Source: a virus (taxonomy: Duplodnaviria; Caudoviricetes). From it: 50,393 nt of DNA. Under the pieces are notes generated by a model. The model was not told the DNA's origin. It made no database searches and worked only from the letters and a program-made list of their open reading frames with translations. Shown piece after piece: positions 10,363-50,393 of this stretch. The stretch lies in the IMG/VR virus record IMGVR_UViG_3300023443_001574, positions 1 through 50,393 of that record. One strand, given 5' to 3'. A program made the translations under genes and the position numbers. Numbering within the stretch: the stretch's first letter is position 1; each line of letters opens with the position of its first letter.

Positions 10363-11025
10363 ATGGAACCAGGAATTCATTGTGAAGCTATAGTCAGCAA
10401 AGCTAATCAAAAAATTGAATTCAAAGAGAACATAGAAGGAATTGACGAATGGCCAATGTCCAAGAACTGGCCAGATGGTGAATTGAGTTATCGATTAAAT
10501 AATTTTTCTGAAGACTTTGCAGAGAAATGGCAGACACGTGCAATCGTTGTTTCATTGAGAGCCTGGAGATGGAGAATTAAAAAAATCTGGTTCAGACGAG
10601 AAAGAAATCCAGACACCAAAGTTGATTTAAATTTTGAATTCAAAGACTTAGCCCACTTTGATAACAAAAAGGGAATATTTGCACACGCTTTTTTCCCTGG
10701 TCAGGGAGCTGCCTCTGGCAATTGCCACTTCAATGATTTTTGGGATTGGGTAGCTGCAAGTAAATGGCAGGATCTAGCACGTGCTCCAATGGTTCCAATT
10801 TCAATTCATGAGATTGGTCACTTGTTAGGTCTTAGACATGACACACTTTCAAGTTCAGTGAACACTGAAATCATGTATCCATCTTTCAATCTTGGAAGAA
10901 AAAAATGGAAACTCGGTCCAAATACTGTTTCAAGAATCCAGGATAGATATGATGCTAGAACAATCAGCCAACGAATTATTGATTATTTTGCTATGAGAAG
11001 ATTCCGGGCCTCTGATTTTCGCTGA
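10363..11025 (+). CDS. Matrixin-family (M10) zinc metalloprotease
   Basis: AHAFFPG, GNCHF, HEIGHLLGLRH (HExxHxxGxxH) and Met-turn IMYP. Confidence 0.9.
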   Translation: MEPGIHCEAIVSKANQKIEFKENIEGIDEWPMSKNWPDGELSYRLNNFSEDFAEKWQTRAIVVSLRAWRWRIKKIWFRRERNPDTKVDLNFEFKDLAHFDNKKGIFAHAFFPGQGAASGNCHFNDFWDWVAASKWQDLARAPMVPISIHEIGHLLGLRHDTLSSSVNTEIMYPSFNLGRKKWKLGPNTVSRIQDRYDARTISQRIIDYFAMRRFRASDFR

Positions 11026-11955: not shown

Positions 11956-13113
11956 TTGGCCAAAATAATCAGAAAATCTGAGAAAGTGACAATTCATCAA
12001 AGTGATAAGAAACCTGATAAGAAGATTGATCCACTTTCTCTGGATGATGTTCCAAAGTTAGGACCAATCAAAATCAAGGCACTGGAAGAAGAAGGATACA
12101 CTACGGCTCTACAAGTAGCTTGCAAATCTCCAACGTTTCTAAAAGAAGTCTGTGATATGGACAGAGAAGAAGCAGGAATTGTATTACACTATATCAAAAA
12201 TAAACTCAAAAAAGCAGGTATCCTGGAAAAACAAGAACTTACAGCTCTGGAATTATTGAAACGAAGAAAGCTCGTCAAACGGTTAAAGATTGGTTGTAAT
12301 AATTTTGACAAGCTTCTTGATGGTGGAATTGAATGCGGAGCAATGACACAATTCTATGGAGAGTTTGGTTCAGGGAAGACTCAGATGGTTCATAATCTTG
12401 CAATCCAAGCTCAACTGCCACGAGAACAGGGAGGATTTGCAGAGAAAGACAAACCTCCTCCAATTGTATTGATTATTGATTCAGAAAAAACCACAAGATC
12501 AGAAAGGTTTCTCTCAATCATGGCAGGAAAAGGGATAATCCCAACTAAAATTCCAGCCAAGATTAGAGACAAGCTTCTTGCATACAAAGAACTTGACATA
12601 GAAGAGCAAAAAGAGTATAACATGTTAGTGGCAAAACAGGAAAAGGAAGGTAAGGATTTTCTCAATCATATAGAAATTCAAGAGGTCACTGACACTTACC
12701 AATTATTTCTCAGAGTGCAAAATCTCTTGCAAGTCATGGAACATGTCAACATAAAGCTTGTACTCATCGATTCAATGGTAGCTACTGCCAGAGGAGAATA
12801 CATCGGACGTGGAAATATGAAAGCAAAATCAGAAATACTAAACGAGATGCTACGTAATCTCAAAATAATTTCTGAGAATTATAAGATTCCAATAGTCATC
12901 ATAAATCAAATCTATCACAGACCTGAAGAGGATTATGGAAGAGACCCTGATGTTTTCTATGGTGGAAACATTCTGGCCCACACAGTCACTTATCACATAA
13001 AGCTAAAAAAATCTGGAAAGAAAAGAAAGGCCATAATCACAAAGTCACCTTATCAGGCCAACGATGAGGCAACATTCATTCTTTCAGATGCAGGAATCAG
13101 TGATCCGAATTGA
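11956..13113 (+). CDS. radA: RadA recombinase (archaeal type)
   Basis: N-terminal HhH domain, LLDGGIECG, Walker A GEFGSGKTQ, Walker B LVLIDS, INQ, GGNILAH. Confidence 0.95.
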   Translation: MAKIIRKSEKVTIHQSDKKPDKKIDPLSLDDVPKLGPIKIKALEEEGYTTALQVACKSPTFLKEVCDMDREEAGIVLHYIKNKLKKAGILEKQELTALELLKRRKLVKRLKIGCNNFDKLLDGGIECGAMTQFYGEFGSGKTQMVHNLAIQAQLPREQGGFAEKDKPPPIVLIIDSEKTTRSERFLSIMAGKGIIPTKIPAKIRDKLLAYKELDIEEQKEYNMLVAKQEKEGKDFLNHIEIQEVTDTYQLFLRVQNLLQVMEHVNIKLVLIDSMVATARGEYIGRGNMKAKSEILNEMLRNLKIISENYKIPIVIINQIYHRPEEDYGRDPDVFYGGNILAHTVTYHIKLKKSGKKRKAIITKSPYQANDEATFILSDAGISDPN

Positions 13114-16021: not shown

Positions 16022-16378
16022 ATGAAACGCGATTATGACAGACTGTATTTAGGAAGCATTACTGTTAGGATGCCAGAATCAATGCTTAAGAAACTTGATG
16101 AAAAATGTGGAGCTGGTCTAAAATATCGAGATAGATCAGAGGCAATCCGTTCTTTAGTTTCTCTTGGAATGCAAGTTGAAAGCTTGTTAGAAATTCAGAG
16201 TGATCCTAAAAAGAAGAAAGAGTTTGAAGAGAAGATCACGTTTCTATTCCAGGAGAATAATCTAGAAAAAACCATGGAGACAATGACAGAGAAAGAGCTC
16301 AGTACAATAATCTTCATCGCAACGAATCTCCAGGATAAGAAGATTCAGCAACTCGTGTTTGACGTTAAGAAGAGCTGA
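16022..16378 (+). CDS. CopG/NikR-type ribbon-helix-helix regulator
   Basis: ITVRMPESMLKKLDE...YRDRSEAIR; overlaps the MCM start. Confidence 0.8.
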   Translation: MKRDYDRLYLGSITVRMPESMLKKLDEKCGAGLKYRDRSEAIRSLVSLGMQVESLLEIQSDPKKKKEFEEKITFLFQENNLEKTMETMTEKELSTIIFIATNLQDKKIQQLVFDVKKS

Positions 16379-18939: not shown

Positions 18940-18996
18940 AACTATTTTGACGGATATATTATTATAATAATATATTGATTGAAAAAGTTGTGAAAC
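18933..18996. promoter_or_regulatory. 64-bp imperfect palindrome; bidirectional promoter
   Basis: Perfect 22-bp core ATATATTATTATAATAATATAT (18954-75) and perfect 11-bp outer arms GTTTCACAACT/AGTTGTGAAAC that contain both GTG starts. Confidence 0.75.
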
Positions 18997-20714
18997 CGAG
19001 CAAGATTCGTTTAGGCTATGAAATTGATACTGGAAAAGAGATCCAGATATCACCATCACATCTCATCGTTACCGGATTAAGCCAGAAAGCAGGCAAAACC
19101 ACAACGTTAGAGTCTCTAATCAAACGGAGTGGTTCAAAGGCAATTGTGTTTAGAACTAAAATTGGTGAAAAAAGTTTCCTGGATGGAACTGTCATTCCTC
19201 CATATTTCAAAGAAAAAAGTGACTGGCAATACATCGAGAGTTTGATTGAGGCTACAATGAAAGAGAAAGTTGGCAAGCTAGATAGAGCTGTCATAATCAA
19301 ACTCTCAAAAATGACGAGCGGAAAATCATTATTAGAATTTAAAAAAGTGGTAGACAACAGACTGCTAGAAAAAATAAACACATTCGAAAGCATGTTGCTA
19401 ACTAATCTGCAAGCATATCTTGAGATTGTGTTGCCAAAATTGCAGACAATACAATTTTCAAACACTCTTGAACTTGTCAATGGTCTCAACATAGTTGACC
19501 TGGAAAGATTCAGCAGAGACGCAGAAGTGCAGAGTCTAATCATCAGCAGTGTTCTTGAAGAAGTACTACATAATCACAAAGGCGTCATTGTGGTAATTCC
19601 AGAAGCTTGGAAATTCATTCCACAGAAAAGAGGAAATCCATGCAAAATGGTTGTAGAGGAATTCATCAGACAAGGAGCCACTAACGGAAATTATCTCTGG
19701 ATAGATTCTCAGGATATGTCAGGCGTTGACAAAACTCCTTTGAAGCAAATCTCAGAATGGATACTTGGATATCAATCTGAAATGAATGAAGTGAAACATA
19801 CCTTAGACCAAATACCACTACCAAAACAAAGTAAACCAAAAGAAGATGAAATCATGACACTAGGAACTGGCATCATGATATTTGCCAGCAGGGATTTGAC
19901 TGCCAAAGTCTACGTCCAACCTTTCTGGTTGAATGATGAAAAATCAATACAGATAGCAAAAGGTGAATTAAAAATAACAGAAATCGATGCTCCAGAACGA
20001 ATAGTTCAGAGTAAAATTGCAATTCAAACCACTCATGATGATGGAGTTGGCAATGAAGAAGTAAAAGGACTGAAACAGCTTATCAGCAAAGAGTTGATAG
20101 ATATGAGAACCGACTTTTTCAATAAAATAGGAGACATACAAGATCAAATAAACAAAGTCTTTGTAGATATTACAGGAATCAAAACCTCTACACCAGTCAT
20201 TGATGAAGATTCTATAGCATCCAAAGTATTACAAAAAATTCCACAACAAAATCATTCATCAAATCCTGTTGACAAGCAAACATTAATTGCTGAGATTATG
20301 GCCAAGATTCCAGCGTCTCCAGGGGCCATGACTTATGAAATAGCTCCACTTGAAAAAATCAAGAAAGACTTTTTGGAAGAAGCAAAGCAGAAAATTCTTG
20401 CTGATGTTGGAGAATTATCCGATGATGCAAAAAAGACGCTAAAATATTTGGAAGTAAAAAGTAAATTGGTAAAAACAAATGAATTGGTTGAAAAATGCTT
20501 TTTGATGAAAGCTGGAGGAAGTGCTTCCAAGAAAGTAAATAATGCCAGTTTACAACTTCGTGGCTTTGAACTTGCTAGAAAAGGAACTCACAGTGATCAA
20601 GAAGGATGCCTGAAATCTAGGATACAATCTTTGTTGGGAAATCATGAGGCAACAGAACAAGAAATAGAAAATCTGTATCAGCATATTCTCATGGAAATGT
20701 TAGGAGGTGATTAA
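18990..20714 (+). CDS. HerA/FtsK/VirB4-like P-loop ATPase with C-terminal coiled-coil and possible winged helix
   Basis: HLIVTGLSQKAGKTT and VIVVIPEAWKF; GTG 18990 preferred (alternative TTG at 18975). Confidence 0.7.
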   Translation: MKPSKIRLGYEIDTGKEIQISPSHLIVTGLSQKAGKTTTLESLIKRSGSKAIVFRTKIGEKSFLDGTVIPPYFKEKSDWQYIESLIEATMKEKVGKLDRAVIIKLSKMTSGKSLLEFKKVVDNRLLEKINTFESMLLTNLQAYLEIVLPKLQTIQFSNTLELVNGLNIVDLERFSRDAEVQSLIISSVLEEVLHNHKGVIVVIPEAWKFIPQKRGNPCKMVVEEFIRQGATNGNYLWIDSQDMSGVDKTPLKQISEWILGYQSEMNEVKHTLDQIPLPKQSKPKEDEIMTLGTGIMIFASRDLTAKVYVQPFWLNDEKSIQIAKGELKITEIDAPERIVQSKIAIQTTHDDGVGNEEVKGLKQLISKELIDMRTDFFNKIGDIQDQINKVFVDITGIKTSTPVIDEDSIASKVLQKIPQQNHSSNPVDKQTLIAEIMAKIPASPGAMTYEIAPLEKIKKDFLEEAKQKILADVGELSDDAKKTLKYLEVKSKLVKTNELVEKCFLMKAGGSASKKVNNASLQLRGFELARKGTHSDQEGCLKSRIQSLLGNHEATEQEIENLYQHILMEMLGGD

Positions 20715-27603: not shown

Positions 27604-29430
27604 ATGGGAGTCACTAAAAAAGTCATAGTTAGACCCCATCACCAGGCTCAGGAAGATAGAAAAAGAAAAGCTGATGCAATTGTAAAGAAGCAGTTAGACT
27701 TTCATTCTGATAAAGAAATTGTTGAAGAGCTTCCCTTACTTCCAATTGATAGAATGCAATGGGAATTGCATTGCAGACCATTCATCAAGGGAAAAAGAAA
27801 CAGGCTTCCATTCTTGCCAATGATAAGAGAAGCTATCCTGGACCCTCATCCATTCAAGCAGTATCTGTGGGGAAGACAATGGGGAAAGACAACTGGATTA
27901 GCTTCAGAGCTTGCACATGCAGCAAGTACTATCAACGATTACGATCAGACTTATGTTAATTTCAAATTAGATAACTTGAGAACATTCTCTGAAAACAAAT
28001 TCCGTCAAGATGTATTTGGCCAAGAACCATTAGCGACTTACGTATCAGGAATCTCAAAGCTTGGTGCAATGAATAGAATAGTAATGAAGACACGTTCCAT
28101 CATAGACATTTTACTTCCTGGTGAGGAATGGTCCAATCTCCTAGGAAAGTCCAATGAAAGAATTGTAGTTGATGAAGGCCAGGATATTGATTGGACTGGA
28201 TTCTTCAATGCAAGAGAAACACAAGCTGACACCATGGGAGATTTGATTATTGCAGGAGTTGGAGGATATACCGACACAGAATATCATAGATCTTGGCTTA
28301 GCACAAATCAGATGGAATGGGAATTCAAACACGGTGAACCGTACAAAGGATATGAGAACATGTCCTGGAGACGAGAAATGGAAGAACGATGCTTTGACAG
28401 TCACGGCCTTGTGTATGATGAAGAACTAGAACGAGTACTTGATGGCAAGTGGGTTCCACGAGCTCCAAAACATTATTCACGCCACGGATATTATTTGCCT
28501 CAAACATACAATCCAAGAATTCCATTAACCATCAAAGATGCAGAACAGCTCTACCATGTATCACCGGAATGGTCCATTGAGTGGAAACAAAAGAACCCTG
28601 ATATCTCCACTATAGATTTCAGAAGAAACGTGATGGCCGAGTTTGTAGAAGGTGAACTCAAACCAATTACCACAAAGATGATGCTCGATTTATTTGACAA
28701 AACCGTTGGACTGACAAGAGCAGAAGATGTAGATCACTATGCTGGCAAAATCTACATTGGAATTGATTGGGGGGGAGGAGGAAAGACCATCATCTGGATT
28801 TGGCAATGCCTTGATGACAATGCTCCAATCTTCAAGCTGCTATGGGTTGAAAGAGTTGAGACAGATGATATCAAGGAGCAAATCAGAATCTGTGAAGAAC
28901 TCATTGATGCATACGAAGGATACCAGATTGTGATTGATGCAGGAGGAGGATCAGCTCAAGTGCAATCTTTACAAAGTCGTTATGCAAGACGCTGTATCAG
29001 AAACTCATATCATGTAAGGCCAGAACGTCCACTGCCAACAGTCCTGGAGAAGCCAAGACTCAACAGGGAAATGCGATATGTGATTGACAGAACTTTTTCA
29101 ATTGATAGAATCATTGATTTGATAAGGCATCCATATCAACACGGAGATTTCATATCTAGCAGAATAATTCTTCCAGGAAAAGACTATGATGATGTCAAAT
29201 GGATAGTCCGTCAGTTTGTTGCACTTGAAGGAGAAAAACACATGCTAAAATCAACTGGCCAGACATACATCAAATACATTCACAAGGATACTGAGCCAGA
29301 TGATGCACTACAAGCTTGCAACTATTCTTTCATAGCCTGGGACATCAACCATGGAGGACGCAAAGTAGAATTCATGCAGCTTCAACCAAAAGATCCATTT
29401 GGTGATGGATACACAACTAGTCCACTTTAA
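27604..29430 (+). CDS. terL: Terminase large subunit
   Basis: Walker A GRQWGKT, Walker B VVDE, RNase H-fold GIDWG, VID, DDALQA. Confidence 0.92.
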   Translation: MGVTKKVIVRPHHQAQEDRKRKADAIVKKQLDFHSDKEIVEELPLLPIDRMQWELHCRPFIKGKRNRLPFLPMIREAILDPHPFKQYLWGRQWGKTTGLASELAHAASTINDYDQTYVNFKLDNLRTFSENKFRQDVFGQEPLATYVSGISKLGAMNRIVMKTRSIIDILLPGEEWSNLLGKSNERIVVDEGQDIDWTGFFNARETQADTMGDLIIAGVGGYTDTEYHRSWLSTNQMEWEFKHGEPYKGYENMSWRREMEERCFDSHGLVYDEELERVLDGKWVPRAPKHYSRHGYYLPQTYNPRIPLTIKDAEQLYHVSPEWSIEWKQKNPDISTIDFRRNVMAEFVEGELKPITTKMMLDLFDKTVGLTRAEDVDHYAGKIYIGIDWGGGGKTIIWIWQCLDDNAPIFKLLWVERVETDDIKEQIRICEELIDAYEGYQIVIDAGGGSAQVQSLQSRYARRCIRNSYHVRPERPLPTVLEKPRLNREMRYVIDRTFSIDRIIDLIRHPYQHGDFISSRIILPGKDYDDVKWIVRQFVALEGEKHMLKSTGQTYIKYIHKDTEPDDALQACNYSFIAWDINHGGRKVEFMQLQPKDPFGDGYTTSPL

Positions 29431-30230: not shown

Positions 30231-30239
30231 GTGATTGTT

Positions 30240-30854
30240 ATGGGTAAAACCAGAATAGATACTCCTGGAAGTGGAGGAGCTACAGGTCCAGCAGGAGCTG
30301 ACGGAGCTGATGGAGCACAAGGTCCAACAGGAACTACAGGTTCACAAGGAGATCAAGGTATTCAAGGTACACCAGGTACTATAGGAGCTACAGGTCTAGT
30401 AGGTCCACAAGGTCCAGCAGGAGATGATTCAACAGTTCCAGGTCCTCAAGGACTACAAGGTCCAGCAGGTGCGGGTGATATTTCTGATGTTCTTTATGAT
30501 TCTACTTACAGAAACGGTGGAAATCTGACCATTGTAAGTGCAGGAACCAACACATTCGGGGCATGGGTTGAATATTCGGCAGATATTGGCACAGGTAAAA
30601 AATTAATTGGCCTTGTTTACATATCCGTCCTCGGCGTGTTGGGTACATCTGTAGAAATTGAAATAGGTGAGGGTGCAGTTTCATCTGAAGTTGCAATATC
30701 TAGAATTAATAGTGTGGGTCTAGTAGAGGAAACTCGAACACATTTTCCATTAAATAGAACTATAACAGATAGTTCAAGGGTATCTCTGAGAGTAAGAGAT
30801 AATATTGGACAAGCAAAAAGTTATCATGTAGTAATATTGGTAGCACCTGCATAA
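30240..30854 (+). CDS. Collagen-like (Gly-X-Y) fibre protein with globular C-terminus
   Basis: [18 protein letters not shown]... about 20 triplets; SD AGGTGA before ATG 30240. Confidence 0.85.
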
Positions 30855-35210: not shown

Positions 35211-36578
35211 ATGAGCCAACAACTTCAACAACTCCAAGGCATGAAACACGGAGACAAACTAGTCTATTCTCCACGAACTGGAGGAATTTACTATGGCCGT
35301 GGCCACATCTCTGAACTAAACTTTGACAATCCAATGGATTTCTTGGGCATTAGAAAACTTGCTACAATGACAGCAACTCCAATTGAATTCAAAGGCAAAG
35401 TTAGCAATGCTCAAGCAGGCGCTGGAAGGACTATGTGGAAACACACTGATTATGAATTAAAGTATATGGCTGCAGCAAAAAAAGATCTTGCTCAGCAAGT
35501 TGTAAGGAAAAATCTTATTACACGAATCCAGGAGAACGGTTACAATGCAAGTGGCCTGATGGCTGCACAGCAATTGCAGCAAATGGATGCACAAATCGGT
35601 GGTATTGGCCAAGATGAAGTATCCCCTATTCGAGTTATTCCATTAATTAGAAAAATTCTAGGACAGAGACCAAACATCTTCTTTGTCGAGCAAGGATGGA
35701 GTACTGTCAATGTTGAGAAATTAGACGCCAGAGTTCCAGAACAAGACACGAGAACTGGTCAGGTCAAGATGAACCCACTTGAGAAGGTGGACTTTGACAA
35801 ACTCAAGTTTGCTGAAGACAGATTCAACCTAAAGAAAAATACTCATGCAACCTTGCTTCCATCTGAAACAAGCAAGAGAGCTGACTTTAACGTGATGCAA
35901 CTAAACTCTGCTGACGCCATGATATCATTCGCAAGAATGAGAAACGGATTGGCTTTACAAGAACTCTCCAACGCAGATGGAACACTAGTAACTCTAGATG
36001 CTCCAAGTGCAACATTCTCAATCAATGACCCCGATGCAGGAACTGCAGGAGTCTTCCCACATTCTGACTTTAGCATCAAGAAAGAACTCTTGACACAATT
36101 CCAGGACTTTCTAGATGACAACGAAGCAATTGTTGACGTCACTTACTGGAACCCAATTGACTTTGCAAGATACGAGTCAAACTATTTCACTAAAGCATTA
36201 AACCAAGGAATGAACGTAACAGTTTCCGGAGTAGTAACACTACCAGGCATTCCAGATGTAACTGCAATCTTGGATAGACGAGTTCCAAGAGGAATGTTCT
36301 ATGCAGCATCTTCCCAGGCAACTCTCAAAGGTGAAGGACCATTTGAGACAGAATTCTGGAGAGAATACACTAGAGACGCAGATGCATTTGTCATGAGAGA
36401 TTATGTGCAATTCCTAATTCCAAATCCAAAGAGATACACACGCAAGATCCAGATTGATGCAACAGCAGCATCCGGTGACGAGTTTGATACTTCCAAACAG
36501 GATGAAATCATTACTGACGCACAACTAGACACCTACATCAGAGGCGTGGCAGTACTCTTGAACAAGCCAGCAACATAG
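35211..36578 (+). CDS. Major capsid protein (HK97 fold, inferred)
   Basis: 455 aa in the canonical position; WNP and PGIP...DRRVP, with R.Y/F C-terminal patterns. Confidence 0.75.
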   Translation: MSQQLQQLQGMKHGDKLVYSPRTGGIYYGRGHISELNFDNPMDFLGIRKLATMTATPIEFKGKVSNAQAGAGRTMWKHTDYELKYMAAAKKDLAQQVVRKNLITRIQENGYNASGLMAAQQLQQMDAQIGGIGQDEVSPIRVIPLIRKILGQRPNIFFVEQGWSTVNVEKLDARVPEQDTRTGQVKMNPLEKVDFDKLKFAEDRFNLKKNTHATLLPSETSKRADFNVMQLNSADAMISFARMRNGLALQELSNADGTLVTLDAPSATFSINDPDAGTAGVFPHSDFSIKKELLTQFQDFLDDNEAIVDVTYWNPIDFARYESNYFTKALNQGMNVTVSGVVTLPGIPDVTAILDRRVPRGMFYAASSQATLKGEGPFETEFWREYTRDADAFVMRDYVQFLIPNPKRYTRKIQIDATAASGDEFDTSKQDEIITDAQLDTYIRGVAVLLNKPAT

Positions 36579-36753: not shown

Positions 36754-37163
36754 GTTTACTTAGTAATGATGCTCTGCAGTTTGTAACATTACAGTTCATC
36801 AAATCTCATTTCAAAATCACAGACACCCAAGATGACAATACTCTTCTAGCAATTGTGCAAGCTGGGAATCTTGAAGTCAAGAAACAGATAATCGCAGTGA
36901 GTGATGATTTAAATTCAATTGAAGGTTCTATCTTTTTTCAACCAGCTCAAAACGCTGCACTAGTATATGTTGAAGCAGAGATAAGACGCCAGATAAACCA
37001 ACTTTACACCGAAGCTGAAACAATCATGGCCAGGTTCAATGAGATGATGTTGACGCTAATCAGTGAAATTAGATCACAAGCTCCAGAAAGAACTTCCAGG
37101 AAACTAGCATCCAGGGAGACAGACTTTGAAGATGACTTTTTTGCAGAGAGAAGATTCCCCTAG
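36750..37163 (+). CDS. Head-tail adaptor (gp6/gp15-like)
   Basis: FVTLQFIKSHFKITDTQDDNTL N-terminal signature. Confidence 0.7.
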   Translation: MSLLSNDALQFVTLQFIKSHFKITDTQDDNTLLAIVQAGNLEVKKQIIAVSDDLNSIEGSIFFQPAQNAALVYVEAEIRRQINQLYTEAETIMARFNEMMLTLISEIRSQAPERTSRKLASRETDFEDDFFAERRFP

Positions 37164-37191
37164 ATCGTAGGCTAGGAGATAGACTAAATAG

Positions 37192-37215
37192 ATAAAAATA
37201 TAATTATATTTTTAT
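37192..37215. promoter_or_regulatory. Perfect 24-bp AT palindrome ATAAAAATATAATTATATTTTTAT
   Basis: Read directly; overlaps the HNH start. Confidence 0.55.
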
Positions 37216-37559
37216 TGATAAAAACATATCCACAGTTAAAATATTATTACAAAAACAGAAAAGAAAAGATAACCTATGCCAGTAATCACGGAAAAGAAAC
37301 TAGGCATAAATTGATTCGTCTTTTGAATCCAGAAATCAAATGTGTAAAGTGTGGATTTAATGATATACGAGCTCTTCAATTAGATCATAAAAATGGTCAT
37401 GGATATAACGATAGAAAAATATTCAAATTAAGCGGAACTTCACTTTATCGATTTTATCTAAGTAATCCAGAATTAGCCAAACAAACCCTCCAAGTATTAT
37501 GTGCAAATTGTAATTGGATTAAAAAAAGCGGAAATAAAGAGAATGCTCACGTAAACTAA
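37215..37559 (+). CDS. HNH endonuclease
   Basis: CVKCG...LQLDHKNG...QVLCANCN. Confidence 0.88.
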   Translation: MIKTYPQLKYYYKNRKEKITYASNHGKETRHKLIRLLNPEIKCVKCGFNDIRALQLDHKNGHGYNDRKIFKLSGTSLYRFYLSNPELAKQTLQVLCANCNWIKKSGNKENAHVN

Positions 37560-38750: not shown

Positions 38751-38953
38751 TGAATAGCCGTAAATTTTTCTCATTTTTAGAGCATACTTTCAATCATAAA
38801 CGAGTCGCTATGCAAAAAATGCAATATGCGGAAACAGCTAATGCTTCGGTAAGTTCGCCAAACTTTGTGGATCCTGCTATCATAGCAGAGAGTGAAGCAA
38901 AGCGTCTGGAGAACGAACCTGTTGTACTTGGGGCATCAAATCTATTTTACTAG
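38750..38953 (+). CDS. Hypothetical protein
   Basis: TAATG overlap. Confidence 0.45.
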   Translation: MNSRKFFSFLEHTFNHKRVAMQKMQYAETANASVSSPNFVDPAIIAESEAKRLENEPVVLGASNLFY

Positions 38954-39001
38954 AATAAAAGAAAAAAATTTTTCTAGAGTGTATATAATAGAGGCCGAAT
39001 A

Positions 39002-39190
39002 ATGGCTTTTCCAATGAAAATTCCATTTCAAAAAGAAATGGATATACACCAAGAACAATTTCCAGATCATGGCAGTTACATCATAACTGGAACTAATAAA
39101 AAAGAAAAATTAAGTGGAGTTTTCTGTAGGAAATGTAAAAAATACATCTCACCGATTAAATTTTTGACAAGCAAAAAGAGAAGGGGGTGA
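39002..39190 (+). CDS. Hypothetical protein (H..H..CRKC)
   Basis: 62-aa ORF. Confidence 0.5.
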   Translation: MAFPMKIPFQKEMDIHQEQFPDHGSYIITGTNKKEKLSGVFCRKCKKYISPIKFLTSKKRRG

Positions 39191-39194
39191 TAGA

Positions 39195-39488
39195 TTGACA
39201 TTACTAGACAATTTTAAACCAGACACAGAAGAAGGATTCCCTGTTCATCAATTCGTCCACGCTGGAATGTTTTGGGCATTAGGTGTATTTAGTAGAGCAG
39301 ACATGATTTCTAAATTCAACTTACAAGCAAGCGATGAACCACAACTGGATGAGTTAGCAGCCTTTTACACTGGACTTCCAAACAATGAGAAATTTTTATT
39401 CATACAAAAAGTTGAAGGTGCACTTGAACTTTATGAAACTGGATTAATGACAGAACAAGAAGTAAAAACACAGTTGGAATTGACATAA
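39195..39488 (+). CDS. Hypothetical protein
   Basis: TTG start with SD GGGGGTGA. Confidence 0.6.
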   Translation: MTLLDNFKPDTEEGFPVHQFVHAGMFWALGVFSRADMISKFNLQASDEPQLDELAAFYTGLPNNEKFLFIQKVEGALELYETGLMTEQEVKTQLELT

Positions 39489-39489
39489 A

Positions 39490-40773
39490 TTGGCTTTTCT
39501 AGTTGAAAAAGGAACGTTCACAAAACGCACAGACGTTGGAACGGATGTAATAAGTCATGGTTTGGGTGAATCCCCAAAGATTCTAATTTTCTGGACAACA
39601 GCACAAACAGCTACAGGATTTGCTGCTCATGTTATTTATTCAATAGGATTTTCAGATGGAACACGACACAAATGTGTTTCAATGGTTTCCGAAGATGCGC
39701 AAGGAACGTCTGATAGTGGTAGAAGATTCAGTGACGTAAAATGTATTCATATCCTAGTCCCTAATGGTGGAGCAGAAGCAGAAGCCGATATATCAGCAGT
39801 TTCATCCACAAATTTCACAGTAAACTGGACTACAAACGGAGGAGGAGCCGATATTATTCACTATCAACTTTTTTCAGGAAGTGACATAACAGTTTCAGAA
39901 GTTGGTCAATTTACAACGAATACTGTAAGTGGAAATCAAACAATATCACACACAAACAGTCCTATTGGTGGTTATGATGTTTACATGTTTTTACTTACAA
40001 GAAGTGGCGGTACGGCTGAAGGAAATGGTGCTGAACTTGGAATAGGGTTTGCAAGTGGTGCAGCAAACGAAGCAGCGCTGACTGTAGTTTCAGAACCTGG
40101 TAGAACAACAACCGCCACTCACAGAATTCAAAGAGATGATAGATGTATAGTTTTACTTGATATAAGTGATGGTGAGATTAGAGCAGAAGCAGAGTTTGTT
40201 TCAAAAACAACATCCGACTTTACTATAAACTGGGTAGATCCATCACCAACTGCTGACGTTATGGCTTTTATGGGAATTAAAGGCGGACTGCATCACGTAA
40301 ATACATTTACACAACCAGCTTCTACTGGAACTCAAGATATTACAGATGCGGGATTTCAACCCAAAGGTTACATGTTAGCTAGTCGTGGTCGTGTTGTTAG
40401 TAGTTCTAGTGATGCAATACATCGATTCATGTTAGGAGCAACTGATGGCATAAACCAAGGAGTTTTATCTAGTAGAGATGAAAATGCTGTAACAACCTCA
40501 AACGCAGACACTCACGAATCTACTGCTGATGTAATGATGTCAATTGCAAACACAGACGTAATACAAGATGAAGCAAATCACGATTCAATGTTACCTGATG
40601 GCTTTCGAATAGATTGGACTGATATTGGAAGCAATGCAGAAGTTGCCTATTGGGCTTTTGGTGATGCGGTACTTGTCAAAGTAACTCCTGAAACATTAGA
40701 CCTAGTTGAAGCAACAACAAAAATCCGAGGTTTGATTAAAATCGCTGAAGGAAAGGAGGCTGTATCTCAATGA
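39490..40773 (+). CDS. Beta-rich virion/adhesin protein with three internal repeats and a C-terminal vestige of the EILDL repeat
   Basis: Three copies of F(T)..(T/S)G.Q/D.I...(G..PK)...F.(V/I).W; ends LVKVTPETLDLVEA. Confidence 0.65.
   Translation: MAFLVEKGTFTKRTDVGTDVISHGLGESPKILIFWTTAQTATGFAAHVIYSIGFSDGTRHKCVSMVSEDAQGTSDSGRRFSDVKCIHILVPNGGAEAEADISAVSSTNFTVNWTTNGGGADIIHYQLFSGSDITVSEVGQFTTNTVSGNQTISHTNSPIGGYDVYMFLLTRSGGTAEGNGAELGIGFASGAANEAALTVVSEPGRTTTATHRIQRDDRCIVLLDISDGEIRAEAEFVSKTTSDFTINWVDPSPTADVMAFMGIKGGLHHVNTFTQPASTGTQDITDAGFQPKGYMLASRGRVVSSSSDAIHRFMLGATDGINQGVLSSRDENAVTTSNADTHESTADVMMSIANTDVIQDEANHDSMLPDGFRIDWTDIGSNAEVAYWAFGDAVLVKVTPETLDLVEATTKIRGLIKIAEGKEAVSQ
40671..40693 (+). repeat. 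23-bp direct repeat, copy 1 (ACTTGTCAAAGTAACTCCTGAAA)
   Basis: Identical to 42270-42292; spacing 1599 bp, same codon phase. Confidence 0.9.
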
Positions 40774-41198
40774 CTATAACTCTAAAAATCATGTATTGGG
40801 AAAACAGCACAACAGTTACAAGAGAAGTTGATGTAACCGACACTGCAAAACTGGATGATCATGTTCAGATTCCAAAGATCAATGTAATCTTTATCATATT
40901 CTCAACATTGGTGGAAGGGATAGCTACCAGAGTCTATGAAAAGGAAGGATTCGATAATTATCAAATCATCTTAGATGGAATACAAAACATCTCTCAAATG
41001 TTTGCATGGGATGATAACGATGGTGGTTGGTTTCGTAATGCTAGTCCACTTGCAGTTGATGGCTACTCAAAATCATTTGTGTGGCCAGGATTATACTCTT
41101 ACAGTAAAGCAAATTATATTTCTTGGATGTTTACTGGTGTTCAATTAACTCCTGCTGAGTGGGCTAGTACAGAAGCAGCAAGGGATGCCTTGAAATGA
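40770..41198 (+). CDS. Hypothetical aromatic-rich protein
   Basis: ATGA overlap and SD AGGAGG. Confidence 0.65.
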   Translation: MTITLKIMYWENSTTVTREVDVTDTAKLDDHVQIPKINVIFIIFSTLVEGIATRVYEKEGFDNYQIILDGIQNISQMFAWDDNDGGWFRNASPLAVDGYSKSFVWPGLYSYSKANYISWMFTGVQLTPAEWASTEAARDALK

Positions 41199-41440
41199 AA
41201 TGTGAAAAATGTGGTGGATCACTCAGAAGAATCGAACAACATTGGGATAAAAAAAATCCCAAACTATTACATCGTCATGCAGTCTGCAATGATTGTGGAG
41301 TAGAGGTCAAATGGACAAAAGAATATCAAGATCCTAAAATGGGCGAAATGATATATTTTCGTACTGTAGCAACCAAAAGCCTTCGTGTTGTACGTGAAAA
41401 AATCAAAATAAAAAAAGAACCTTGTGAGTGTCGTGATTAA
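41195..41440 (+). CDS. Zn-ribbon protein
   Basis: CEKC...CNDC. Confidence 0.6.
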   Translation: MKCEKCGGSLRRIEQHWDKKNPKLLHRHAVCNDCGVEVKWTKEYQDPKMGEMIYFRTVATKSLRVVREKIKIKKEPCECRD

Positions 41441-42145
41441 ATGGTTTTTGAAGATATTAGTAAAGGTCAACAGGTAATACTTGCAACCGAAACAGGTCAG
41501 GATGGAGCTAAAACAGGTAAGACAACCTGTTTAACTGATGATACGAGTGCAACTTCATGTGTTGAAGTAAAGTCAGGACAGGGAATCAGAGCTGAATGGC
41601 CACACGTTCCAGGAGCAATGAGTAGTGTGACATTAAGAATTGGCGTAAACAGTATCATGAATGCTGGAACGTTAAGAGTTGCTCCATATTCAGATTTCGA
41701 TTCAATAAATAACACAAACGGAAAGACAACTGCTTCAATCGATTGTGCTGGAACACCTGCTTCTTGTCCTGGCGATGTTGACGAATCACTTGCTCAAGCA
41801 TTGATTGACGATTGTTTGACAGTAATTTTTACGTTTAGACTGTTTGAAAATGGTAGTGGTGCAAAAATCAAAGTTGGTGAACTAGATGTTGAAGCAACAA
41901 TCACAACAATTACCTTATCGGGAGTTACAAAAGACGATGATGATGTTATCGTTGGTTCAGTTGGTTGTACCACAGTCAGAATGACTGGTTCATTTCCAAA
42001 ACTTGCAACAACAATAGATCGACAAGCAAGTAATGCAACTACAGGAGCATATTCAGTTTCTTATGAAGATGATGGAGAACAATACAGAGTAATTGGAGAG
42101 AAAGGTGCAGAGTCTGATATAACTCCAGAAGTCCAGGGAGTTTAA
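41441..42145 (+). CDS. Putative virion beta-sandwich protein
   Basis: T/G/S-rich with Cys pairs; C-terminal LSGVT...TGAYS pattern. Confidence 0.55.
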   Translation: MVFEDISKGQQVILATETGQDGAKTGKTTCLTDDTSATSCVEVKSGQGIRAEWPHVPGAMSSVTLRIGVNSIMNAGTLRVAPYSDFDSINNTNGKTTASIDCAGTPASCPGDVDESLAQALIDDCLTVIFTFRLFENGSGAKIKVGELDVEATITTITLSGVTKDDDDVIVGSVGCTTVRMTGSFPKLATTIDRQASNATTGAYSVSYEDDGEQYRVIGEKGAESDITPEVQGV

Positions 42146-42150
42146 TCACC

Positions 42151-44397
42151 TTGGCAGTAGCCAAGAACATCTACATTCGAACGAATGCAGAGAGAACAAG
42201 CGGTACAGCAGTCGCTAAAAACATCTACATTCGTACAAATGATGAGAGAATATCTGCAGGAGGGGCAGCACTTGTCAAAGTAACTCCTGAAATTTTAGAT
42301 TTATCTGAAGGGACAGTTGTAATCATAGGGAAAACTAGAGTCACAAATGAGATATTAGACATCCCTGAAGGAAGTCTCGCACATAGAGCAAGAGTATTCC
42401 TCAAGAATGAAATCCTGGATTTAGCAGAAGCTGCAAATCCATTAAGATTCTTTCCTAAAGTTAGTGATGAGACTCTAGATCTATCAGAAGGAACAGTAAT
42501 CACAAGAGTCTTAGTCAGACTAAAATCAGAAATCCTGGACCTAGTTGAAGATGCAATCAGAGTATTAGGAGTAGTCAAAATCAAAAACGAAATCCTGGAT
42601 TTAGTAGAAGGAGCACTCAATGTTTTAGGAATAGTTAGAGAGAAGAGTGAGATACTAGACCTTCCAGAAGCACGTAACTTCATTAGAGGTAGAATCAAAC
42701 TCGCTCCTGAGATACTAGAATTATCTGAAGGCACAATCTTCACACGAGCACTCATTAGACTCAAAACTGAAATCCTTGATTTGGTAGAAAGTGCAAGACC
42801 TTTCATTGGTCTTATAGTCAAAGTCAAGAATGAGATATTAGACCTTGTAGAACAGGCAAACGGACTTTTAACAAAACTGCATGAGACTCTAGACCTAGTA
42901 GAGGGAGCAATTGCAAAAGTTACTGTAGGAGGTATTACTAAAGTATCTAATGAAATCCTTGATTTAGCAGAAGGTAATGTCTTCACGAGGGCCTTAATCA
43001 GATTGAAGGCAGAGATTCTAGATTTATTTGAAGGAGCAGTGAATATCGTTGCAAAGACCCGGGTAAACAACGAAACTTTGGACCTTCCAGAAGGAAGTGT
43101 AGCTCATCGAGCCAGAATCTTCATTGCAAATGAAATTTTAGATCTAGTGGAAGGGGCTCTTGTTGTTCTTGGTATTGCAAAAGAGAAAGGTGAGATTCTA
43201 GATTTGCCTGAAGCAAGAAACTTTGTCCGGGATAGAATCAAAGTAAGTGATGAGACTCTAGATCTTGTTGAAGGAACTGTAATTACTAGAGCATTAATCC
43301 GGTTGAAGGCTGAGATATTGGATTTGGTGGAAGCAACAGTTAGAATCATAGGTTTTCCCAAGATAGCAAATGAAACCTTAGATCTTCCAGAAGGAACAAT
43401 AATCACAAGAGCTCTCATTCGACTGAAAGCTGAGATATTAGATTTAGTAGAAGGAGCTCTTGCAATTCTTGGAATCGTTAAAATTGATAATGAGATTCTT
43501 GATCTTCCAGAAGCCAGAAATTTCACTCGAACTTCAGTGAGATTGAAAGCTGAGATACTAGATCTGTCAGAAGGTAATGTAATCACTCGGGCATTAATCA
43601 GATTGAAAGCAGAAGTTCTTGAACTTGTTGAAGGTTCCGTAATCACAAGAGCTTTAGTAAGACTCAAAGCTGAAATCTTGGATTTGTCTGAAGCAGCAAA
43701 TCCATTGAGAGCATTCAATAAAGTTAATGATGAAATCTTGGATTTGCCTGAAGGTACAGCAAAAGCACTAGGCTCAGTTAGATTAAAGTCAGAAATTCTT
43801 GATTTGGTTGAAGGCGCTATCAAGATATTAGGATTTCCAAAGATTGCAGATGAAATTCTTGATTTAGTTGAAGGCTCTGTAATAACACGAGCATTAGTCA
43901 GACTGAAAGCTGAAATCCTTGATCTGTCAGAAGGAACTGTTATCACTAGAGCTCTTGTTAGATTAAAAACTGAGATATTAGACCTGGTTGAAGATACAGT
44001 CAGAATCATTGGATTCCTAAAGATAGCAAATGAAATCCTGGACCTGGCGGAAGGTGCAATTGCGAAAGTCACTCCTATAGCTGCAGTTATTATCAAAATA
44101 GCAAATGAGATCCTAGACCTATCAGAAGGAACCATATTCACTAGAACTTTAGTCAGATTCAAAACAGAGATTCTAAACATTCCAGAAGTAGCTAATCTAA
44201 CTAGAATCTTAGTCAGAATAACAAATGAAACTCTCGATATCGTAGAACAAACAATACGGAAACTTGCAATCCGAATCAAAATAATCGATGTAACTCTAAA
44301 TATTGATGAAGATGACACTGCAAATCTTGGCACTGATTTAGATATCACTGCAGATCTTAACGTCAATTTAGACGATGACAGCGAACTTTCTCCATAA
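42151..44397 (+). CDS. Repeat protein with 33 tandem ~20-aa units E(I/T)LDLxEG....RAL(I/V)RLKx
   Basis: Repeats counted in the translation; duplicated N-terminal AVAKNIYIRTNxER; acidic C-terminus. Confidence 0.9.
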   Translation: MAVAKNIYIRTNAERTSGTAVAKNIYIRTNDERISAGGAALVKVTPEILDLSEGTVVIIGKTRVTNEILDIPEGSLAHRARVFLKNEILDLAEAANPLRFFPKVSDETLDLSEGTVITRVLVRLKSEILDLVEDAIRVLGVVKIKNEILDLVEGALNVLGIVREKSEILDLPEARNFIRGRIKLAPEILELSEGTIFTRALIRLKTEILDLVESARPFIGLIVKVKNEILDLVEQANGLLTKLHETLDLVEGAIAKVTVGGITKVSNEILDLAEGNVFTRALIRLKAEILDLFEGAVNIVAKTRVNNETLDLPEGSVAHRARIFIANEILDLVEGALVVLGIAKEKGEILDLPEARNFVRDRIKVSDETLDLVEGTVITRALIRLKAEILDLVEATVRIIGFPKIANETLDLPEGTIITRALIRLKAEILDLVEGALAILGIVKIDNEILDLPEARNFTRTSVRLKAEILDLSEGNVITRALIRLKAEVLELVEGSVITRALVRLKAEILDLSEAANPLRAFNKVNDEILDLPEGTAKALGSVRLKSEILDLVEGAIKILGFPKIADEILDLVEGSVITRALVRLKAEILDLSEGTVITRALVRLKTEILDLVEDTVRIIGFLKIANEILDLAEGAIAKVTPIAAVIIKIANEILDLSEGTIFTRTLVRFKTEILNIPEVANLTRILVRITNETLDIVEQTIRKLAIRIKIIDVTLNIDEDDTANLGTDLDITADLNVNLDDDSELSP
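42270..42292 (+). repeat. 23-bp direct repeat, copy 2
   Basis: Identical to 40671-40693. Confidence 0.9.
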
Positions 44398-44433
44398 TAA
44401 TACTAAAAAGAACCAAATTAGTTCATGTGATAG

Positions 44434-44994
44434 ATGGCTACAATATTTGGTAAAGGACATTTGAATGCAACATTTCGAGTTAAGCTAAAAGACATCATGA
44501 GAGGAGCTGATATTGATGTCTCATTAATCGCTGATCAATTCATCATATTTTACAAACCAAATGGAACGAACTTTCAAAAACAGGCCACATTAGACAATGA
44601 TCTGACTAATCCATCACAAGTAATTGCAATCGCCAATATTGTTGGAGATGGAATTGAGGATAAAATCACAGTTACAATTGCAAACACTAACGTACTGAAA
44701 GATGGTGAATTGATGAGTATTAGCGGAACTGTCAATTTTAATGTGACAAATAAGCCCATAACAATTGTAGACGGAACCAAGTTTACCTATCTATTAGGAA
44801 CTGTAGGAAGTACATCAGCAGAAACTGTTGGCAGCGTTACAACCCAGGGAGAAAAACTTGTCACTTATCAAAACACAGATCCTGAAACCTCTATCCTGGA
44901 TCAAATTGGAAAATGGGAATTTGCTGGCAAAGTAGATTTGACTAACAATGATGAGTTTCCCACAAGTGACAGAGCAATCTTTTGGGTGTCCTAG
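44434..44994 (+). CDS. BppU-like tail protein with inserted small beta-barrel
   Basis: FYKPNGT and DQIGKWEF flank an LKDGELMSISG...ITIVDGTKFTY insertion. Confidence 0.5.
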   Translation: MATIFGKGHLNATFRVKLKDIMRGADIDVSLIADQFIIFYKPNGTNFQKQATLDNDLTNPSQVIAIANIVGDGIEDKITVTIANTNVLKDGELMSISGTVNFNVTNKPITIVDGTKFTYLLGTVGSTSAETVGSVTTQGEKLVTYQNTDPETSILDQIGKWEFAGKVDLTNNDEFPTSDRAIFWVS

Positions 44995-47552: not shown

Positions 47553-48077
47553 TTGGCAACAATTAGGGTATTCCGATTGACTCTTGCTGGAGATACCAAT
47601 AGCACAGAGTTTATTGATTTCAATGGAATCACTAAAGCATTACAACAAACAGATATTGAAAATGCATTCATTACAGAAATTAAACGACTGCCATCAGATG
47701 GAGTTGGAAACAATCAAGGCGCTGAACTTCCACTTGGAAACCAACAAGCTTTAGGCCAAGTAGAGGACGTCTACATTATCACTGGCTACATTTCCAAAAG
47801 GAATGGAAATTCGAATAATGGGCTCAATGCCTTTTTGACCACATTGAAATTATGGGAAGATGGTTCGAAAAAAATCAAAGGAGTTTGGGAACTCGGAAGA
47901 TTTGGAATTATAGTAAATGATGACCACTCAAAAGATTTGGAACCTGATGGAGCTGGGGTTCCTGCAAATCTGACAAAGGCATTACTTTGGGAAAAGATAG
48001 AGTACAGATCTGATTTCAAAGGCAATAGAGAACATTTCGTACTCTTCTTCCGTGTGAACAAAGGGGACGGCACGTAG
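47553..48077 (+). CDS. Putative distal tail/hub protein
   Basis: Position between the tape-measure-like gene and the large tail-tip gene. Confidence 0.45.
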   Translation: MATIRVFRLTLAGDTNSTEFIDFNGITKALQQTDIENAFITEIKRLPSDGVGNNQGAELPLGNQQALGQVEDVYIITGYISKRNGNSNNGLNAFLTTLKLWEDGSKKIKGVWELGRFGIIVNDDHSKDLEPDGAGVPANLTKALLWEKIEYRSDFKGNREHFVLFFRVNKGDGT

Positions 48078-50393
48078 TTGGGAAAATTTGCTGAACTCAA
48101 TGATATTCTTGTTATTCTAAAAGATCACTCCGGAGACCCAGGAGCTGACGTAAATGGAGACTTTGACTTATCAACAAAATGGACCGTGATAGAATACAAA
48201 GATGAAGTTCCACAATCTGTTAGGATAGTCTTCAATGCAGACTATGGAAGATTTCTGACCAGGGCCCCAAAAATCAAAAAGAGAGACAGAATATTTGTCA
48301 GAATTACAGAGAAGGATGGCACTATCACGGAAGATGTTTTTCATGTTAGAAAGATAAAGCGAAAGCGTATCCAGGGAGTTGGATTGGGTCTGGAAGTTAT
48401 GTGTCCTCATCAATCTGAGAATCATTGGAAAAAGACAGTCTCCTTTAAGAAACGTGGAAAGAGAATATCTGGAAACAGAGCAATAGAAATTTCAATTGCT
48501 GATCTAAATGCGAATAAAGCTGTCAAAGATCCGACAATAGAAATTCCATCTACATTTGACCAAGTGAAAAAACTTGGAAATCGATTTGACAAGAATACTT
48601 CGAACAATTACTTTTTCGAATCAGTCAAACTCGAAACAGCAATTTCTGAAATAAAGGATATTGAATCTCAACCAGTGGAAGGAGGAGGTTCCTTTGAACC
48701 AATGTATGTTAGATTCAAATCAAAATACAATCATGTTCCTCCTGGAGTAGACTTGGACACAGTGGTCCTGCAAGCTTTCGAGCAAGGATTCAAAGACAAC
48801 TCAGGAGTTTTCAATAGTACTCCTAGTACTACACTGGTTCATCCAACAATTGAATCCGGGGACAGGCCAAACATTCTCTCAATGGATTCAGATGAAGATC
48901 CGGAACAAGGAACTAATCTTGTTGCAATTGGAGACAAAACCTCTGGCAGTTTCACTAGAGAATGGATGTTGTATGTAGGTGCAAGAGAAGTATTTGATAA
49001 TCCTAGAACCTGGGATTCAACAGCTAATTACAAAGAAGGCCATCTGGTAAAAGACGATGACGGAAAAAGATACGAAGCATTGGGGTTCACTAACAATGAC
49101 AAACCTTCTGCAAGTCCATTATTTTGGATTGAAAGAACTTTCACAAAACCAGCTCAATGGCTCGTTGCTACAGCTTACAGCAGATTTGATCTAGTCAAAA
49201 ACAATGATATCGCATACAAAGCACTTCAAGCTCATACCTCAAGCGCAGCAGATGAACCTGGAAAAGATGATACTTTTTGGATACGAATTAGCTTTGCCCC
49301 AACTGTGGATTATTCTCCACTGACCAAAGACAAAGTTCAATATTTCGTTAATGCTCTTGCTGGAGCAAAACATGCAGCAACCAATAATTCCAAGACTGCA
49401 ATAATAGACCCGAATGTAATAATTGAGGATGCGCTACATCCAAGAACTTTCGTAAGATATGTCAACACAGACCCTAGTTTGATTCCGGCAGAGCTCAAAG
49501 TAGGTGGAAATATTCCAGACGCATTTAGAATGTTGGTTATCAATCCGGCCACTGGAGTGGAAACAGGAGCTGGGGATTTTGCCGGAAATGACCCGGCAGG
49601 AATTGCGTTTGCTGGCAATGTCGCTGAGTTTGTAGATGATGACAATGACGGAACAGGCTTCTGGAGAGTCTTCAAAGGAAGAGTTACTGCACAGGATCAA
49701 GAAGTCTTTGATTGGTTTGAAAGTGATTCTTGGATCAAGAAACCATGTGAAGGAGGAACATCTTATGTTGATGGAGCTGGAACTTGTGTAATTGGTTCAC
49801 GTAATGTTAATTGGGTCAAAGGAGCTTACAGATTAACTGAAGTTTTGTTTGTAGGAAAAGTTGGAAGATTCTTTTCTGCAGGACAGTTTGAGTGTGTCCA
49901 CTCTGTAAAATGGGATTCAACAAACTTGAGAGTTGATATGGGCAACGAAAAGATAATCGAAGAACTTGAGTCTGCCACATCAGCAGTCTTCATCAAGTCA
50001 GCTCCATTGGACATAACCAGGACCTTTCCATTCTTTGTCGGATTTAATTTTCATGCTATGCATCCATTCACGTCTAACGCAATACCATTCGGAGCAGTTA
50101 CAATTGGAGAGAAAATTAAGCATCCAACTATGGACTTGAACAACATGGATTTGACACATCTTCTCAAATCAGAATGGTTTGGACCAGGAGTAGAAGATTA
50201 CTATCCACTCCAGGCTATTCTTGCATGGATGAAACTCTCAATCAATGACTCAGTCTTAGGATTTTTTGATCCACTTGACGGTGATTTCAAAATTGGAATT
50301 TCATTGTCTGACAGAAATGACAACACAATGATAATAGAATACACTCACAGCAGAAATTCCAAGGTATTGCCATTAGAAGGTCTACTTTCAAAA
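47804..50393. repeat. Right copy of imperfect terminal direct repeat
   Basis: Colinear with 1-2590. Confidence 0.97.
48078..50393 (+). CDS. Second allele of the tail-tip protein 275..3169 (truncated by window end)
   Basis: TTG GGA AAA TTT start, colinear with allele 1, no stop seen. Confidence 0.88.
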   Translation, partial: MGKFAELNDILVILKDHSGDPGADVNGDFDLSTKWTVIEYKDEVPQSVRIVFNADYGRFLTRAPKIKKRDRIFVRITEKDGTITEDVFHVRKIKRKRIQGVGLGLEVMCPHQSENHWKKTVSFKKRGKRISGNRAIEISIADLNANKAVKDPTIEIPSTFDQVKKLGNRFDKNTSNNYFFESVKLETAISEIKDIESQPVEGGGSFEPMYVRFKSKYNHVPPGVDLDTVVLQAFEQGFKDNSGVFNSTPSTTLVHPTIESGDRPNILSMDSDEDPEQGTNLVAIGDKTSGSFTREWMLYVGAREVFDNPRTWDSTANYKEGHLVKDDDGKRYEALGFTNNDKPSASPLFWIERTFTKPAQWLVATAYSRFDLVKNNDIAYKALQAHTSSAADEPGKDDTFWIRISFAPTVDYSPLTKDKVQYFVNALAGAKHAATNNSKTAIIDPNVIIEDALHPRTFVRYVNTDPSLIPAELKVGGNIPDAFRMLVINPATGVETGAGDFAGNDPAGIAFAGNVAEFVDDDNDGTGFWRVFKGRVTAQDQEVFDWFESDSWIKKPCEGGTSYVDGAGTCVIGSRNVNWVKGAYRLTEVLFVGKVGRFFSAGQFECVHSVKWDSTNLRVDMGNEKIIEELESATSAVFIKSAPLDITRTFPFFVGFNFHAMHPFTSNAIPFGAVTIGEKIKHPTMDLNNMDLTHLLKSEWFGPGVEDYYPLQAILAWMKLSINDSVLGFFDPLDGDFKIGISLSDRNDNTMIIEYTHSRNSKVLPLEGLLSK

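Follow-up and report, generated by a model that had tools for sequence, protein, structure and literature searches.

A 23-bp direct repeat at the head-to-stalk joint of a viral fibre locus as a likely point of homologous recombination

Why does an exact, in-frame direct repeat of 23 base pairs (bp) stand twice in the fibre locus of one tailed virus, once near the end of a head (knob) gene and once at the opening of a long stalk gene, and what does it say about how head and stalk are joined? The locus belongs to the virus record IMGVR_UViG_3300023443_001574 (Duplodnaviria; Caudoviricetes), which is rated complete and which was analysed over its whole length; these 50,393 bp are called the window below. 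The initial annotation of positions 39,490 to 44,397 had placed two explanations side by side, namely a scar of a cassette insertion that displaced the original head, and a live two-state switch of receptor binding. On the comparisons reported here, it is considered likely, with a probability of about 0.6, that the locus arose by homologous recombination between modular fibre genes within a hypervariable island, that the head-to-stalk joint is the recombination point, and that both genes are functional.

The left copy of the repeat (40671..40693, plus strand) lies inside the head gene (39490..40773, plus strand; 427 amino acids (aa), TTG start), at the joint where the first stalk unit starts, and the right copy (42270..42292, plus strand) marks the start of unit 1 in the stalk gene (42151..44397, plus strand; 748 aa, TTG start). 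The exact in-phase identity that had been claimed over a distance of 1599 bp is borne out, with 23 of 23 positions identical at an offset of 533 codons, and when translated in frame with genes 39490 and 42151, both copies give L-V-K-V-T-P-E. No exact direct repeat elsewhere in the window is longer, the diverged duplication of the contig ends excepted, and the longest exact repeat within the 33-unit stalk array is 20 bp. Similarity around the repeat reaches 51 nucleotides (nt) at 80% identity, and the remaining stalk units match at 61–69%. In the head gene, residues 1 to about 393 make up three beta-sandwich repeats, and residues from about 394 to 427 are a stalk-like tail, so that the gene carries about 1.5 stalk units at its C-terminal end. 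It had been described as ending with LVKVTPETLDLVEA (...LVEA); this has to be corrected, as 19 further residues follow (TTKIRGLIKIAEGKEAVSQ). The size of 1102 aa given for a fused product is right, since 4908 minus 1599 nt leaves 3309 nt.

Head tail and stalk together contain 287 pairings of 7-residue peptides with the same sequence, and all of these were compared at the DNA level. The LVKVTPE pair alone shows zero differences; the median is 4–5, and most pairs differ at 3–6 of 21 bases. At the joint, the 7 codons of the patch hold 0 synonymous changes versus 5 in 9 conserved flanking codons (Fisher calculation, p about 0.03). The patch exceeds chance, only moderately so, and it is younger, or more constrained, than its surroundings, on statistics that are modest. 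It is sharply bounded, with synonymous and non-synonymous changes flanking the 23 identical positions on both sides. Past the patch, the head tail fits best to stalk units 18 and 29 (12/20 and 11/20 residues), and unit 1 reaches only 7/20; in the DNA, the match to units 18 and 29 is 63–64%, with unit 29 at 75% over the first 32 nt. By these alignments, the head tail is a mosaic, which past the patch resembles internal stalk units rather than unit 1. Bounded identity between two otherwise differently related sequences fits a crossover or a short conversion tract, and a duplication followed by even divergence would not be expected to yield such a patch.

A head profile was searched against 1.84 billion representative proteins; the head module is matched in 4855 of them at an expect value (E) up to 0.001 and in 796 at E up to 1e-30, and many of the 4855 are very large multi-domain proteins. 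The eight nearest relatives (P0002–P0009) are 54–65% identical to the window head and stop 10–14 residues past the conserved ...YW(A/T)FG, five of them ending in a conserved ...PARRRFPQKPxNLRY. The stalk-like tail is missing in all eight of these unfused relatives and therefore is a recent local acquisition. Fused forms with short-period repeats are nonetheless common in the family: in P0025, a 57% identical head is followed by about a dozen 20–22-residue units; in P0097, the head continues through ...AGGAALVKIVNE... into 20-residue units, and the joint AGGAALVK (8 residues) is identical to the linker before unit 1 of the window stalk gene; further fusions of head and repeats are P0073, P0010, P0013 and P0115; and on the metagenome contig L008, a family head (28% identical, E 3e-25) is fused to the same EILDL-type stalk, with an alignment to the window head that crosses the joint and the entire tail. 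Fused homologues, on whose existence in relatives the initial annotation had let its proposal depend, are thus at hand, and its claim that head and stalk belong together agrees both with them and with the position of the repeat exactly at the head-to-stalk joint. Among 166 top-hit proteins in which the module was matched to its end (not a random sample), fewer than 60 aa follow the module in 82 and more in 84; at least 8 of the 166 show a strong 15–24-residue periodicity, by a score that missed several fused cases seen by eye. Scans with the head of viral contigs, phage records, metagenome contigs and genome contigs returned no relatives.

In a midpoint-rooted maximum-likelihood tree of 30 head modules, the window head is sister to the unfused P0004 within a 100/100 clade, in which the unfused P0009 is the earliest branch and the fused P0025 is nested. 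The fusion state therefore changes repeatedly, and the tail of the window head is a recent gain; because the head stands among unfused relatives, the head gene has acquired its stalk-like tail and does not retain it as a remnant.

The stalk gene consists of a leader, the linker AGGAA, a series of stalk units and an acidic C-terminal end; the units, of about 20 aa each with the core E-I/T-L-D-L-x-E, number 33, as had been counted before. The linker that starts the stalk gene is the linker that follows the heads in fused relatives. Homologues with the same repeat behind other heads are P0172–P0174, L006 and L008. In P0172, P0173 and P0174, the EILDL stalk follows quite different N-terminal domains, with the joint motif G-A-A-(L/I)-V-K-V in common, so that the same motif borders different modules, that is, unrelated heads in P0172–P0174 and family heads in P0097 and L008. 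Searched as a single protein in viral contigs, the stalk found no relatives. From the 20-residue period, a beta-solenoid fold of the stalk may be guessed.

The leader (42154..42261, plus strand) is made of two 18-codon copies (AVAKNIYIRTN...) with 84% DNA identity over the first 43 nt; over their first 11 codons there are 5 synonymous and 0 non-synonymous differences, and no in-frame start other than TTG 42151 occurs within 210 codons, the next lying at 42781. The leader is therefore translated and selected. No leader homologue was found at E up to 10 among 38 candidates, all of them proteins of 411–1309 aa. When the stalk was compared with P0097 and P0173 by BLASTP, the leader repeats (residues 1–30) were never aligned, and the best alignments start at residues 38–43. 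The idea, formed by eye, that the leader is a relic of the last strand of a head was dropped, as the head profile fails to match the leader.

The fibre cassette (38926..44433, plus strand) is hypervariable and lies between conserved head-completion genes and a conserved 186-aa gene (44434..44994, plus strand), which directly follows the stalk gene and begins a block of conserved small structural genes. Relatives of the cassette were found via the capsid protein (L003, L004, L005) or via the stalk (L006), and their flanks were compared by blastn. The locus differs between otherwise close relatives: on the left flank, L003 matches the window at 92% and 88% identity as far as 38925 and shows no similarity beyond, and its cassette genes (320, 97, 232 (LamG), 140 and 387+ aa) are unrelated. 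In L004, which is from a complete 45-kb genome with terminal repeats, similarity to the window ends at 37151 and returns at 44535, with a 1125-aa fibre and other genes between; the head module is absent in the whole record of this relative (G003). In L005, a headless 250-aa repeat stalk stands immediately upstream of the homologue of gene 44434. This protein (L005:14995-15747) is built of units of about 20 residues (...ESVxVSDxxNRKL...) and ends in Cys-containing acidic repeats. Homologues of the 186-aa gene are located at 17462-18022 in L004 and at 15749-16078 in L005 (E 1e-13); the downstream gene of L009 matched the window gene 44434 at E 0.075, which was not counted as synteny. Comparison with relatives, to which the initial annotation had pointed, has brought up fused forms, split forms and the alternative cassettes of L003, L004 and L005.

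A split layout comparable to that of the window occurs in L006, where a head with 3 stalk units and an 86-residue C-terminal domain is followed by a LamG protein and then by a long stalk gene that begins with a 35-residue leader. The neighbours at L006:5018-6685 (family head) and L006:6685-7953 (LamG/DUF2341) share the 86-residue C-terminal domain (43% identical, E 4e-18), which is probably a shared anchor of the pair.

Taken with the bounded patch and the mosaic tail, these comparisons point to the following course of events. The two 23-bp copies would represent one structural position present twice, namely that at which the knob module meets the first unit of the 20-residue-repeat stalk; one copy of the joint lies in the 3' end of the head gene, which has only about 1.5 stalk units, and the other in the 5' end of the long stalk gene, which has a short leader in place of a head. 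A crossover or short conversion tract inside the patch may have joined two different stalk-type sequences, and the head and stalk genes would still act as separate fibre or adhesin components of the virion. If the two copies recombined, the DNA between them would be lost in a rare, one-way event, and the fused gene structure known from relatives would arise again. The scar explanation of the initial annotation is thereby kept in part: the hypervariable cassette, the lack of a tail in all eight nearest unfused head relatives, the bounded patch and the mosaic tail all speak for it, and the notion that an original head was displaced has to be revised.

Several observations weigh on the other side. 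The statistical distinction of the patch is modest, with p about 0.03 drawn from 16 codons, and seven other identical-peptide pairs differ by one base only. The head and stalk genes of L006 hold no comparable identity patch, so that such a patch does not belong to the split layout in general. The model of the stalk has a predicted local distance difference test (pLDDT) value of 31 and is unusable. Purifying selection on the leader, together with the intactness of both open reading frames (ORFs), points to an arrangement kept by selection rather than to a scar alone.

This last point leads to the explanation that the knob acts in trans, in which the stalk-like tail of the head would be an adaptor that mimics a stalk unit and docks on the leader-capped N-terminus of the stalk, or at the same virion site, the fibre being assembled from two gene products. 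Docking of this kind can coexist with a recombinational origin; on its own account, it is regarded as possible but unlikely. It would make sense of the two intact ORFs and of the selected leader with its single start, and the nearest head relatives are free-standing, with a different conserved end peptide in five of eight, which suggests non-covalent attachment in the clade. The head tail is modelled with low confidence and as unstructured alone (pLDDT 47–56), as is expected of a peptide that folds on a partner, and L006 also encodes a head with few stalk units apart from a long leader-plus-stalk gene. In L006, however, the head carries its own C-terminal domain in common with its LamG neighbour, so that the short stalk there serves as a spacer rather than as an adaptor; no homologues of the leader were found; and selection at the protein level leaves the identity at synonymous sites unexplained. 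A related and quite unlikely proposal is a fibre with exchangeable tips, in which the knob, via its stalk-mimicking tail, and perhaps a 234-aa protein encoded between head and stalk would dock in trans on the conserved two-copy leader that ends the long stalk, and the 23-bp joint would let rare genomes collapse to the fused form. If this were true, one virion could show several specificities, and the collapsed fused form would have a single one.

The live switch of the initial annotation supposes that the viral recombination proteins delete the 1599-bp segment at a useful frequency, so that the population holds split and fused fibre states. Known programmed switches are the invertible segments served by Gin and Cin in Mu and P1 and the shufflons, which use inverted repeats and a site-specific recombinase, and the diversity-generating retroelements, which use a reverse transcriptase and a template repeat. 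The locus is like them in that a repeat within a host-recognition gene could change what a fibre bears at its distal end. In favour of a switch, the direct repeats match exactly and share the reading frame, the patch is without synonymous change where its flanks have it, the predicted product has natural counterparts in L008, P0097 and P0025, and a RadA/Rad51-like recombinase is encoded. Unlike in these systems, the repeats here are direct, no inverted repeats were found, and deletion between them is one-way and irreversible, which means loss rather than switching. Neither enzyme was found in the scans: the earlier statement that no site-specific recombinase is present agrees with the 52 ORFs scanned against Pfam (shorter ORFs lay outside the scan), and no reverse transcriptase was found among these ORFs in Pfam and PHROG scans, the 23-bp repeat coding for an invariant peptide. 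In addition, 23 bp is very short for homologous recombination, the patch is absent from L006, and the joint pattern LVKVTPExLDL is absent from all other viral contigs searched. A live switch is therefore very unlikely, and with a programmed switch improbable, the finding is probably an instructive but ordinary case of fibre-gene mosaicism.

It is highly improbable that the split layout arose in assembly, by a false join between co-occurring strains at either 23-bp copy, and that no single genome has this layout. The ends of the contig are 90% identical copies, a pattern expected of a run between strain variants, and a mosaic head tail would also fit such a join. However, assemblers in common use settle their final contigs with words longer than 23 bp, the ORFs that cover both copies are all uninterrupted and closely spaced, and the guanine-cytosine (GC) content is even across the cassette. 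The one public run that contains the sequence, which appears independent, has 6% of the sampled words and at 80% likeness gave 8 small pieces, with no deletion joint or circle among them and none spanning a repeat copy; three of them (151–173 nt) match the window without difference, at 40790-40960, 42862-43012 and 43073-43245. Recombination at the joint in a hypervariable island is the preferred explanation.

The head claimed earlier as having three repeats appears in the predicted model as three beta-sandwiches; this model (AlphaFold2, 41 homologues) has a pLDDT of 93 and a predicted template modelling score (pTM) of 0.90. In the model, the head resembles single-chain C1q/TNF heads and phage fibre tips. 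In the structure comparison, C1q (5hzf) is listed at 8.2 (242 / 5.4), Cbln1 C1q at 7.8, adiponectin at 7.2 and APRIL-BAFF at 6.8. Unlike the trimeric C1q/TNF heads and the knobs of phage and pyocin fibres (5hzf, 5kca, 4dou, 4zch; 7eea, 4mtm, 6cxb), the head here has its three sandwiches naturally in one chain, so that a single polypeptide builds the entire knob; sequence identity to these structures is 6–18%. Pfam names no family for the head; only a weak fn3 match (E 0.005, below the cut-off) and no C1q/TNF sequence match was obtained. Among predicted viral proteins (BFVD), the top structural match is a DUF7483 protein (probability 1.0, template modelling (TM) score 0.33), and the head itself has no match to Pfam DUF7483 (PF24299) at E up to 0.01; the fused relative P0097 reaches 22.4 bits, below the 27-bit cut-off. 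Pfam DUF7483 (PF24299) is a domain of unknown function in phage proteins; no paper in the literature collection searched mentions it, and nothing relevant on pseudo-trimer, C1q and phage was found there.

Three ORFs lie between head and stalk. The first (40770..41198, plus strand; 142 aa) has an ATG that overlaps the head stop and an AAGGAGG 11–17 nt upstream of this ATG; it has no Pfam or PHROG match, Atlas searches giving leads only. The second (41195..41440, plus strand; 81 aa) has a CxxC...CxxC pattern, looks like a zinc ribbon by eye and gives only weak PHROG matches of unknown function. The third, ORF234 (41441..42145, plus strand; 234 aa), may be another small adhesin, which is a lead only; its C-terminal part of about 80 aa is prealbumin-like, matching CarboxypepD_reg and phage_tail_N models, with a TM score by target of 0.70 over 77 residues, below the naming bar. 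The three ORFs show no significant similarity to L006 genes (E 34, 0.27 and 0.19), the last value being that of ORF234 against the L006 C-terminal domain by BLASTP, and a scan of viral contigs with ORF234 returned no relatives. Pfam and PHROG scans found no integrase or transposase domain in them. An inserted mobile element with target duplication or att sites was rejected, as the insert holds no such enzyme and the similarity runs 3' past the repeat (the 51 nt at 80% noted above). The Shine-Dalgarno motif was also discarded as a marker of the left edge of an insert, being weak, with a loose motif at only 17 of 50 starts, and the GC composition has no step at 40770 or 42150. A frameshift from ORF234 into the stalk was set aside, because no slippery site was seen by eye in 42118-42145.

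As to the wider setting, the window encodes an MCM helicase (16359-18389), a RadA/Rad51-like recombinase (11956..13113, plus strand; Pfam Rad51 E 1e-44, UvsX-like in PHROG) and a large terminase (27604-29430), which makes the virus a tailed one with replication genes of archaeal type. The RadA/Rad51-like protein is the sole recombination protein recognised in the window. Upstream of the fibre locus are a presumed capsid gene (35211-36578) and an adaptor-like gene (36750). Beside the variable cassette, an HNH endonuclease gene (37215-37559) lies in a low-GC stretch (37169-37556; 0.28 versus about 0.38), which is missing in the close relative L003, where the equivalent of 37168 is joined directly to that of 37557; the stretch resembles an insertion of a homing endonuclease. 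The window also encodes fibre-like proteins that bear collagen and CBM5/12 segments, and a collagen-repeat protein of 207 aa (30231-30854; Pfam Collagen E 7e-8, many tail-fibre PHROGs) lies upstream of the portal/capsid block. The contig begins and ends (1-2590 and 47804-50393) with direct copies of one sequence, which agree at 90% over 2590 nt and take in the last part of a 174-aa gene together with 772 residues of a CBM5/12 fibre protein (91% protein identity). Either these are tandem paralogues across a circular junction, or the assembly has wrapped from one strain variant into another, which would give a unit genome of about 47.8 kb. A matrixin-type zinc metallopeptidase, unusual in a tailed virus, is found at 10363-11025 (Pfam Peptidase_M10, E 1e-22), and a 579-aa ORF (18975-20714) has a weak match to a large-terminase PHROG (E 2.7e-5), besides the clear terminase.

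Module shuffling in the T-even distal tail-fibre locus was reportedly described by Tetart, Desplats and Krisch in 1998. That locus is a hypervariable host-recognition locus in which adhesin modules are exchanged between related viruses, and its fibrous repeat motifs, together with short conserved motifs at the module borders, serve as recombination points (PMC3157838); the present locus is alike in this. Unlike the T-even phages, this virus has archaeal-type replication genes (MCM, RadA), its adhesin has at the N-terminus a knob of three sandwiches in a single chain, carried on a stalk of 20-residue repeats, and the module border occurs twice in one genome, 1.6 kb apart, with head and stalk as separate genes. 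It has also been reported that metagenomic islands with C1q-like putative receptor-binding genes occur in marine and cryoconite (glacier) phages (PMC7468147). There, near-identical backbones carry different knob-type recognition genes, just as the window and L003 do here; in contrast, the present island is multi-gene with head and stalk split, and Pfam C1q has no sequence match to the head.

What is new is the pair of a one-chain three-sandwich knob and a 20-residue-repeat stalk, the kind of virus that carries it, and the duplication of the border within one genome. Host recognition in viruses with archaeal-type replication genes is almost unstudied. The locus ties a very widespread and uncharacterised knob module, with thousands of representatives and no fitting Pfam name, to a family of 20-residue-repeat stalks, and it shows the exact border at which knob and stalk join, separate and re-join in nature. 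This border is a handle for annotating fibres in metagenomes, for predicting which part bears the specificity, and for testing whether knobs can be supplied in trans.

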